Part shown: in pieces, positions 27,535-30,911 of the stretch
Layout of the letters: each line of letters begins with the position of its first letter
How positions within the stretch are numbered: position 1 is the first letter of the stretch
DNA from: Balamuthia mandrillaris
Lineage: Eukaryota
Direction of reading: 5' to 3'
DNA length: 64,000 bases
Assembly (NCBI GenBank): GCA_031835245.2
Contig: JAVKOQ020000024.1
Coordinates: 186,001 to 250,000, forward strand
Made by a program: the position numbers and the translations under genes
The notes under the pieces: generated by a model
Seen by the model: the letters and a program-made list of their open reading frames with translations, nothing else
What the model was told of the DNA's origin: nothing
Database searches by the model: none

Positions 27535-28601
27535 TCAGTGGAAGTGATTGAGGGTGTTTTTTACATAACGAGAGGCAGGGTTGATGGTGTGTTCCTGCAT
27601 TCGAGGATTCAAGTCTTTCTCCTCTGCCACCATCATGATCTTAAAGTCGATGGCCCATTCCTTCAACAACTCTTCTGGTGCTGTTCTTCCTCCTTTGTTC
27701 GTTGGTGAGTTTCAAGTTTGTTTAAATAAAAGCAAGACGTACTCTCTTCTTGAAAACGTTTCATCATCCAAGTGGCATCGAGGGCGGCGAGAATGGCCCT
27801 GTTGGCTCCCGTTCCCAAGGGCCAGAACGGCTCCACCAAGGCGTCTCCCACCAAACAAATGAGCAATTGATTGCTTCTGTTTTTGCTGCTTTGAAGAATC
27901 TTTGAGTTTGCTGTGCTGACCTTTTTGCTAAGAGAAGAATAGAAGGGAGGAAGTGAGAACGAGAGAGAGAGAAAGTGAGGAAGAGAGAAAGAGTAGAACC
28001 TTGAAAAGTCAAAGATGGCAACATCTTTTCCTCCTCGGCTGTTGGCTGCGAAGCTACATGTGGCAGGAAGCTTTATGTTCACAGCAACTTCTCTCACGAA
28101 TGTCTAAACAAGATAAAACCATGCAAAGATAAGCAGAAGAAGAAGAAGAAGAAGAAGAAGAAGAACAAGAAGAAGAACAAGAAGAACAAGAACAAGAATA
28201 AACCTCTAAAGCATCCTTATTGATATTTTGTGGATTCAGAAAATCAGCTGCATCCGCACAGTCGTTCTTCAAAACCCCTTTGCTCAAGAGACTACACTCA
28301 AAGAAGACGAAGAAACAATTACTACCAATCGTCATAGAAAAGATGAAGCTAAGAGAGAATACCTTTGTTTCTTGGCGGTCATCACAAAGTAATGCGTTTC
28401 TCCACGATAGTAAACGAGATTCTCCAACTCGATGTCGTACTTGTCTTGGAACTCCTGGAAGAACGATTGATGGTACACCCGGAGCCTTCCAAACTCTTCG
28501 ATCTGTTTCTCGGGTCTCGTTTGCGAGTTTACTGGTTTGTTGCTAATGTTCAGTTCTGTTGAAACACGTTCTCTCTCTCTCTCTCTCTAATTCATAGCTC
28601 A

Positions 28602-28651
<50 letters not shown>

Positions 28652-30911
28652 TCTGCTATCCATGTTGAATCAAAATCAAAACGTACCAAAGTTAGCAGTG
28701 ATACCAATTGCTTGACTTCCTTTGGTGAGCTTCCGTTGAAAGCCCAAAACATCGGCAACAACCGAGTTCTCTCCATCTGCGCCCACCAGCACGTTAAACC
28801 CAGCCAACTCTTTTGGATTTAGTTGGTGCATGCTCTCCGTCTCTAACCTCCATCCCGAGCCATCCATCATCTCGAAGAGGCCTTTGAAGGTGACCATAGG
28901 AAAGAACTTGACCCCCAGTATTAAACATACTTTGAGCAACAACGTTTGCAACCGTCTTATAGCGATATGACTATTTGTAGAATAGAGTAAGAGAAGCGAT
29001 TCCAGAAGATAGGAGAGAAATACTTACTGAATGCCTCCAGTACAAAACTTCGGAAAGAAAAACTTTGCTCCGACGTTCTTCAAGTCATGGATGGAACTAT
29101 CCCAAATGTGCAACAGGTTATGCCTCGAGAATGCGGCTCTCTTCTCCAAAATGATCACCTCTGCTCCCATCAAACTGGCCTCCACGGCCGTTCGAAGTCC
29201 TCCTGGCCCTCCTCCTATCACAAGTACCTTCAACGGCGATGAAGAGGCGGAGGAAGAAGAAAGAAGGGAACGAATGGAAGCTCGCCGGCGATCCAAAAGC
29301 TTGTAGAGAGCAGCGGTGCTGTGGTTCAGACTTTGTGTCTTGGTGGCGATGGCAGCATAGATTTGTTGGCTGGAGTCTTCGTCCGTTATAGCACATTTTC
29401 TTTTCAGTTCCTATAGTGAAAGGATACAGCAAGTAAGCAAGGACGTTAAACAAAAGCTGAACAAAAGAAGGGTATACGTTAAATATTTGCAGGGTGGTCA
29501 GCATTTCCTCTTCGGCAACAAAGTCTCGCCACAGGGTTCCTATATCAACATTGGCACTATAGGTCTTGGGGTTTGGGAATTGAATGATGGAGAGCTCGTA
29601 TCCTCCTTCCTGAACGGTTGCATTGGAAACAACGTTGAGTAGAGTCTTCTGTTTGTTGCTTGGTACTTCCTTTTCTTTGTCTTTGCTTGGAGAGGCAACG
29701 GAAGAAGCAGGAGAGGAACGGGCTGTCGCTTTTTCTTGTTCTTCTTTTTCTTTAAGTTTTTGCTTATATGAAACTTGTTGTTGCTGAGTGTTGTTGTCTG
29801 TTTTAAAAACGATGATGGAAGGAGAAGAATTGGTGGCTTCGCTTTGTTTGAGCGAGAGCAAAGAGGAGCGTCGTGCCTGTTCTTCTTTTTGTCTTTGGAT
29901 TCGCTCCTCCTCTTCTCTTTTCTTTCGTTGCTCTTCTTCTCTTCGCTTTCTTTCGGTTTCTTCTCGTTGTTTCCGTTGCTCTTCTTCCCTTCTCTTTCGT
30001 TCATTCTCTTCTCTTCTCTTTCTCTCTTCTTCTTCTCTCCGCTTTCTTTCGTTTTCTTCTCTTCTCTTCCGTTCTTCCTCTTCTCTTCTCTTTCGTTCGT
30101 TTTCTTCTCTCTGCTTTCGTTCCTCCTCTCGCTTCTTTCGCTCAGTTTCTTCTCTCTTCTTTCGTTCCTCCTCTTCTTTTCTCTTTCTTTCGGTCTCCTC
30201 TCTTCTCCTTCTGTCATCTTCCTCTCTTCTCTTTCGTTCATTTTCATCTCTTATCTTCCTTTGCTCCTCCTCTCTTCTCTTCCTTTCGGTTTCTTCTCTC
30301 TTCTTTCGTTCCTCCTCTTCTTTTCTCTTTCTTTCGGTATCCTCTCTTCTCCTCTTCTCTTCCTCTTCTCTTCGCTTTCTTTGTTCCTCTTCTCTTCTCT
30401 TTCGTTCATTCTCTTCTCTCTTCTTCCTTTCAGCTTCTTCTCTTTCTCTCCGCTTTCTTTCCTCCTCTCTCGCTTGAGCGCTGTAATTATTGAGTTCTTT
30501 CTTCTCTTTCTCTTTAGCTCTTTGTTCCTCCTCTCGTCGTTGCTTCTGTTCTTGCTCCTTCTTTATTCGCTCCTCTTTTAACTGCTGGACTCGAGTGATC
30601 CATTCCGGCTTTCGCTCGGCTGGACTTGTTGCTGCTGCTGCAATCGGCCTTCCTTTCGATCGACTGCCACTCGCGTCCACGTTTCTAGTGCCGACAGAGT
30701 TCTTGTTGGAAGAAGAAGAACGGAGTCCATGTTTCACTGCGACAGGAAAAGTGACGAGAACGAGAACGGAGCCATAGACAGCAGCTATGGAATAAAATAC
30801 AAGCCAAGGCCAAAACAGTTCCTCATCGGATGGCTGGTAGGTCGGCTGCGTGGAACCAAAGCCCAGGGAGGAAGTAATCCACGAGAACACTCCACCACTC
30901 CCTCCGTCCAT
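27535..30911 (-). CDS. MICAL: MICAL-family flavoprotein monooxygenase with N-terminal TM segment and ER/K helix; no CH/LIM domains
   Basis: Motifs VLVIGGGPGGLRTAVE, ILEKRAAFSRHNLLHIW, GAKFFFPKFCTGGI.HIAIRRLQTLLLKVCLILGV, VLVGADG, AIGITANF, IELENLVYYRGETHYFVMTAKKQSLL, DVAIFDF, LVGDALVEPFWPLGTG and HTINPASRY. These occur in the same order as in the MICAL monooxygenase domain. Confidence 0.92.
29868..30578 (-). repeat. Coding ~24-nt periodic repeat encoding an ER/K (E4-R/K4) single alpha-helix
   Basis: Tandem units such as EENERKRR, EEEERKRR and EETERKRR over about 200 residues with no Pro or Gly. Confidence 0.85.

Follow-up and report, generated by a model that had tools for sequence, protein, structure and literature searches.

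The gene at positions 27535..30911 of a 64,000-nucleotide stretch of the Balamuthia mandrillaris genome (contig JAVKOQ020000024.1; the window) raises the question of what a MICAL-type FAD monooxygenase does when it sits at the end of a protein that opens with a hydrophobic helix and a long charged stalk. The monooxygenase domain is described as N-terminal in Drosophila and vertebrates (PMC9982024), and the MICAL family is restricted to animals in PMC11853071 and PMC3305314. An earlier note on this DNA had proposed an inverted, membrane-tethered protist actin oxidase or H2O2 source, free of the known autoinhibitory modules and able to act at a set distance from a membrane. Here, we examine the gene model, the enzyme, the predicted anchor and stalk, and the relatives of the protein, and weigh what it may do.

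One spliced gene encodes a protein of 934 residues

The gene lies on the minus strand, with its ATG at 30911 and its stop ending at 27535. The spliced model has eight exons and seven GT-AG introns, reads as a single open frame of 934 amino acids, and gives a product identical letter for letter to P0001, the NCBI entry "[F-actin]-monooxygenase mical3 [Balamuthia mandrillaris]," in which "mical3" is an automatic label. Exon 1 (29478..30911; aa 1-478) contains the N terminus, the predicted membrane helix, the ER/K helix, a linker, and the first monooxygenase helices, and its frame stays open from the ATG through all of these. Beyond intron 1 (29411..29477, 67 nt), exon 2 (29028..29410) holds the GxGxxG motif (29198-29215) along with H579, W581, and G603, as read from the spliced model and the alignment, and exon 3 (28687..28970), whose flanking joints were both seen, holds the DG motif D671-G672 (28772-28777). 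The ENLVYY...FVMTAKKQ core is placed in exon 4 (28363..28531) by the spliced model. Exon 5 (28204..28291) was placed by its open frame, by homology, and by its match to P0001; the introns on either side of it, 4 and 5, gave no joint among the sequencing runs aligned to the gene. Exon 6 (28000..28103) is marked by the joint of intron 6, exon 7 (27743..27927) carries the GD...FWP motif (27807-27848) and is backed by the spliced model and RNA-type joints, and exon 8 (27535..27692), joined across intron 7 in run X1, ends in TGA.

Set against RNA-type data, this model holds up: five of the seven introns (1, 2, 3, 6, and 7) appear as spliced joints in run X1, a run that is presumed to be RNA and from which the NCBI annotation may derive. 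The joints of introns 3 and 6 also occur in raw RNA reads, that of intron 6 being present in X1, X4, and X5, and the acceptor of intron 3 is placed at 28532 by an RNA joint. Raw RNA runs X4, X5, and X6 gave 33, 48, and 17 aligned reads, respectively, many of them from other repeats, numbers too small to define transcript ends or expression levels. For intron 1, which separates the stalk exon from the main enzyme exons, the joint comes from one X1 contig with 35 letters on its short side. The X1 joints, this one included, are absent from runs X2 and X3, where contigs continue unspliced across intron 1. RNA-type contigs over exon 1 span 30309-30964 and 29477-30125, and 30244-30308 is uncovered by the listed pieces. 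Separately, an X1 contig with a loose end at 28372-28380 matches the gene through the FVMT core and diverges after it while staying in frame; read by eye, it looks like another monooxygenase paralogue, the third in this organism.

The C-terminal domain is a complete MICAL-type monooxygenase

Residues 457-934, encoded by exons 1-8 (27538..29543, minus strand), match PF25413 with an E value of 2.4e-42 and 144 bits (cut-off 27). All five PDB matches at E<=1e-5 are MICALs, including MICAL3 (6ici, E 2.7e-99). In an AlphaFold model built from 40 sequences, pLDDT is 85-97 for most of the domain's 10-residue blocks, and the first 10 Foldseek ranks are all MICALs (E 3e-48 to 6.5e-43, rmsd 2.2-3.2 Å); rank 11, another hydroxylase, follows at E 6.6e-16 and an rmsd of 5.6, its E value lying 27 orders of magnitude away. 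PHBH-fold (group A) flavoprotein hydroxylases have the fold and FAD motifs in common with the Balamuthia protein but differ in identity (12-18%), rmsd (5.2-10.7 Å), and their small-molecule substrates. By sequence and fold, the domain is of the MICAL type. The last residue aligned to MICAL is 927, leaving seven before the end of the protein, as expected from the earlier description of a complete domain with the stop right after it.

The three motifs quoted in that description fall at residues 544-549, 737-756, and 848-861. The FAD motifs are kept as GxGxxG (G544-G549), DG (D671-G672), and GD (G848-D849), as are the equivalents, including H579 and F855-W856-P857, of human MICAL1 H126, G150, and F399-W400-P401, residues to which PMC11315924 and PMC11557892 draw attention; H126 and F399-W400-P401 belong to the active site. 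Animal MICAL1/2/3 and Drosophila Mical (PDB 6ici, 2bry, 4txi, and 8y6k/9ewy) share with the Balamuthia protein the whole domain, its fold, its FAD motifs, and its active-site residues, whereas the Balamuthia protein has the domain at its C terminus, without CH, LIM, or bMERB, and adds a membrane helix and a 239-residue single helix, both predicted; with such an anchor it would not be soluble in the cytosol as MICALs are. Pfam finds no CH, LIM, or bMERB match in the 934 residues; the stop comes directly after the enzyme, and the next gene is convergent. The claim that the enzyme is free of autoinhibitory modules therefore stands for the known ones, but freedom from autoinhibition as such does not follow. 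Most likely, the protein works like a MICAL while failing the family's architectural definition.

We mapped the F-actin-protected regions of MICAL1 onto the protein ourselves, with approximate boundaries for the largest stretch. Two of the mapped stretches are 56% identical to 12 animal domains, compared with 38-41% to animal MICALs over the whole monooxygenase domain, and a third (MICAL1 440-453 plus its flank) is 18% identical to the same 12. Because the two well-conserved stretches also belong to the core of the fold, their conservation does not point specifically to actin; Pfam finds no actin-binding module in the 934-residue protein.

The intact DG aspartate is a feature that the Balamuthia protein has in common with MICAL2/3 and Mical, which have low basal H2O2 output; in MICAL1, loss of this aspartate gives high basal output, and restoring it lowers basal NADPH use by ~12-fold (PMC5772675). 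Among 15 aligned amoebozoan domains, DG is kept in 14 and replaced by EG in one. The intact D671-G672 argues against a constitutive H2O2 source and weakens that part of the earlier proposal.

A membrane anchor and a single-helix stalk are predicted ahead of the enzyme

A single transmembrane helix is predicted at residues 33-59 (30735..30815, minus strand) from a Kyte-Doolittle peak of 2.15, an AlphaFold helix at 29-61, and the flanking charges, in the position where a hydrophobic segment had been noted (30735-30818). The net charge is -3 before the helix and +3 after it. By the positive-inside rule, the positive flank lies on the cytosolic side, which would leave the rest of the protein in the cytosol; the C-terminal enzyme of the tethered protein is thus probably cytosolic. 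The segment is moderately hydrophobic (2.15, compared with 2.02 for a buried helix of the enzyme) and contains prolines at 35 and 56. The membrane tether of the earlier note is upheld as a predicted anchor.

The ER/K tract, likewise noticed earlier, is borne out by its charge pattern at residues 109-347 (29871..30587, minus strand). Glu, Lys, and Arg make up 195 of its 239 residues and hydrophobic residues only 5, and the charged i,i+4 pairs are opposite in 165 of 170 cases, whereas shuffles give a mean fraction of 0.50 and a maximum of 0.65 (n = 2000). This pattern, with so few hydrophobic residues, is that of a single α-helix rather than a coiled coil, and we predict that the tract is a monomeric single helix. 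AlphaFold places a helix at 104-358 with a single low-confidence break at 224-230. At 0.15 nm per residue, the contour length is ~36 nm. ER/K helices have a persistence length of 15-22 nm, and with this value we compute a mean end-to-end distance of 26-30 nm. In the AlphaFold model, the helix is flanked by low-confidence linkers of ~40 residues (60-102) and ~100 residues (357-442); the second overlaps the linker that leads into the enzyme (aa 359-456; 29544..29837, minus strand), with pLDDT <50 at 357-379 and 396-442. Low-confidence linkers on both sides make the stalk a leash, not a ruler, which weakens the idea of a set distance from the membrane.

Amoebozoan relatives also place the enzyme at the C terminus

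Our search of the literature on non-animal MICALs and on Balamuthia, in which most subscription papers fell outside, found no description of a protist MICAL monooxygenase or of this architecture; PMC12050087, PMC12146513, PMC4758236, and PMC4183817 added nothing. Databases already hold automatic "MICAL" labels on protist proteins, so the domain is on record, although apparently not discussed.

The closest homologues all end in the monooxygenase, with identities of 41-52% among amoebozoans. A Balamuthia paralogue with EF-hands and a C-terminal monooxygenase is 52% identical, and the same enzyme stands behind EF-hands in Acanthamoeba ACA1_209420, in Vermamoeba (P0215), and in unnamed proteins. 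One record, P0078, combines ADF/cofilin (E 1e-9), EF-hands, and the monooxygenase; P0077 is a near-identical shorter form without the ADF part. P0389 (1700 aa) consists of leucine-rich repeats, two gelsolin repeats, LIM, degenerate EF-hands, and the C-terminal monooxygenase. By inference, P0389 comes from Acanthamoeba, because three Logan members cluster with P0237, a near match of ACA1_209420. P0389-P0391 look like a Flightless-like front end on a MICAL enzyme (LRR-gelsolin-gelsolin-LIM-EF-monooxygenase), and the 646-aa NCBI model ACA1_209420 looks like a truncated C-terminal part of P0389. KAL6065911.1 (Balamuthia), ACA1_209420, P0389, P0215, and P0078 form one supported clade and share the C-terminal monooxygenase with our protein; unlike it, they have EF-hands, alone or together with ADF/cofilin or LRR-gelsolin-LIM, and no membrane helix. 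The inverted order to which the earlier note drew attention is therefore real (aa 457-934 of 934) but not special, since its nearest amoebozoan relatives usually have it too.

A profile search of 1.84 billion representatives returned 707 at E<=1e-30, the best 150 of which we classified with a 100-residue threshold: the domain is N-terminal in 106, C-terminal in 12, and alone or fragmentary in 32. Among the 12 C-terminal forms of these best 150, P0324 is a borderline case that probably represents a fragment of an animal protein, and only the Balamuthia protein has a hydrophobic span above 1.8 at its N terminus. C-terminal forms with a named source are assigned to Thecamoeba, Endostelium, Paulinella, and Salpingoeca infusionum (PH domains), with single transcriptomes among the sources. 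Further monooxygenase domains are assigned to Protostelium, Planoprotostelium, Physarum, Cymbomonas, and Hyaloraphidium. Besides amoebozoans, these sources include one rhizarian, one choanoflagellate, one green alga, and one fungus. By an insensitive pattern scan, none of 45 matches in prokaryote genomes and none of 46 in viral contigs was confirmed as a relative.

Other members of the family also carry features suggestive of membranes. P0319 and P0345, which have the animal order (monooxygenase, then CH), each close with four hydrophobic helices and may represent another membrane-bound MICAL; one of the two matches MARVEL weakly (E 0.003). In P0277, P0302, and P0347, the C terminus is one hydrophobic tail. 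P0268, with a C-terminal monooxygenase, starts Met-Gly with Cys5, a pattern that we take to be a possible myristoyl/palmitoyl anchor and so a further route to membranes.

A second form with a membrane helix probably arose separately

One other protein, P0003 (803 aa; three full-length members, with a partial Vermamoeba vermiformis protein in its 90% cluster), resembles ours in layout, with a membrane helix, a charged tract, and a C-terminal monooxygenase. Its helix has a hydrophobicity of 2.89 and is followed by a +4 flank. The charges in its tract do not follow the single-helix pattern (i,i+4 pairs: 7 of 33, against 165 of 170), and the first 100 residues of the Balamuthia protein show no similarity to P0003, the two N termini being unalignable.

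We built LG+G4 trees from hand-chosen sets of 31, 47, and 16 rows, all unrooted and without an outgroup. Animal and amoebozoan domains split with support of 100/100 in the 31-row tree, and the Balamuthia protein stands outside the animal MICAL clade in these unrooted trees. In the 47-row tree, it falls within a 12-row amoebozoan clade of mostly EF-hand forms (99/98) as sister to the Balamuthia EF-hand paralogue (100/98), which supports the protist origin claimed for the enzyme, and P0003 is sister to P0202 (100/100). The branch of the Balamuthia protein is longer than that of the paralogue (0.46 versus 0.30). With 16 rows, and with tests chosen after the trees had been seen, a sister pairing with P0003 was rejected (p-AU 0.00045), and a grouping with both P0003 and P0202 was not (p-AU 0.077). 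The unalignable N termini and different charge patterns, with the rejection of the pair, make separate origins of the two anchored forms likelier, although gene conversion between Balamuthia paralogues could mimic this result.

A membrane-hung actin oxidase is the favored reading

We consider it reasonably probable that the protein is a membrane-hung, C-terminal MICAL enzyme that oxidizes actin methionines and takes filaments apart near a membrane. The spliced gene has the domain order described above. The helix at 33-59 is predicted to insert in the membrane with the rest of the protein in the cytosol, and the 109-347 helix with its two floppy linkers would give a reach of a few tens of nanometers and no fixed distance. 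Judging from animal MICALs, contact with F-actin would switch on NADPH-driven FAD reduction and Met44/Met47 would be oxidized directly, with little free H2O2 made without actin. The anchor and stalk may have taken the place of the EF-hands after an amoebozoan gene of the EF-hand-monooxygenase type was duplicated, so that permanent placement would do for this protein what Rab/plexin recruitment does for animal MICALs. The strongest indication that actin is the substrate comes from the ADF/cofilin (P0078) and gelsolin (P0389) fusions in the same clade. The redox region of Drosophila Mical alone is enough for actin disassembly (PMC5772675), and Mical-oxidized Acanthamoeba actin polymerizes more poorly, with a raised critical concentration (PMC10705957).

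A tethered cytosolic enzyme could instead act mainly on another protein, such as Arp3, a motor, or an organelle-surface protein, rather than on actin Met44/47. The lack of an actin-binding module, the one poorly conserved actin-protected stretch, and the longer branch fit such a shift, as does the oxidation of Arp3B Met293 by animal MICAL2 (PMC8193582), but the active-site residues are unchanged and close relatives are fused to ADF/cofilin and gelsolin, and we regard this alternative as unlikely. A membrane-bound NADPH oxidase that releases free H2O2, for signaling or prey killing, is very unlikely: MICAL1 does yield H2O2 without substrate (PMC5772675) and the known autoinhibitory domains are absent here, yet D671 is intact, restoring its counterpart quieted MICAL1, and the motif is kept in nearly all of the aligned amoebozoan domains.

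We also think it quite unlikely that the hydrophobic segment is a cleaved signal, a span of reversed topology, or a peripheral or hairpin anchor, leaving the enzyme secreted, luminal, or loosely attached. Its moderate hydrophobicity and two prolines would suit these readings, but it begins only at residue 33, the flanking charges favor a cytosolic enzyme, the Vermamoeba-type P0003 has a stronger helix followed by a positive flank, and NADPH and actin are cytosolic. That two adjacent genes, or an assembly join, have been taken for one gene is highly improbable. No single record among the runs spans the whole gene or the distance from the membrane helix to the enzyme; against this, exon 1 has no stop between the ATG and the enzyme's first helices, which makes a two-gene reading unlikely, a joint crosses intron 1, and an X2 contig runs unspliced across 28658-30174. 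The assignment of anchor, stalk, and enzyme to one gene, as first proposed, is thereby sustained.

Implications of the actin oxidase reading

If the membrane-hung actin oxidase is real, the Balamuthia gene would encode the first integral-membrane actin oxidase, and the anchored form would be a simple system for asking how far from a membrane such an enzyme acts. Of wider interest than the gene itself is the protist family to which it belongs. If amoebozoans and other protists have complete MICAL monooxygenases, redox control of actin would date from far back in eukaryote evolution and could be tested in Acanthamoeba, a long-established model for actin. The EF-hand fusions suggest calcium control, and the ADF/cofilin fusion suggests a hard-wired partnership of oxidation and severing. 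A broader picture, to which we give slightly less than even credence, is that enzymatic actin oxidation is ancient and eukaryote-wide and did not arise with animals, that protists aim a free-standing C-terminal MICAL enzyme by swappable N-terminal modules (calcium-sensing EF-hands, ADF/cofilin, gelsolin-LIM, PH), and that on two separate occasions amoebae evolved a form with a membrane anchor and a stalk, able to remove actin within reach of one membrane.

Neighboring genes in the window

Downstream of the MICAL-type gene lies a convergent GATA zinc-finger gene (25.4-27.35 kb, plus strand) with S/P- and Q/H-rich tracts and an intron at 26700-26777 that is spliced in X1. Upstream is a PSME4/PA200-like multi-exon gene (PF16507; 33.4-38 kb, plus strand). 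The GATA and PSME4-like neighbors have no bearing on the function of the MICAL-type gene. A small divergent transcribed gene (31.3-32.3 kb, plus strand) has a joint at 31815-32104 in X1 and no Pfam match in the frames tried. A GC-rich exon at 23.7-24.1 kb (plus strand) has a weak match to universal stress protein (E 0.0004).
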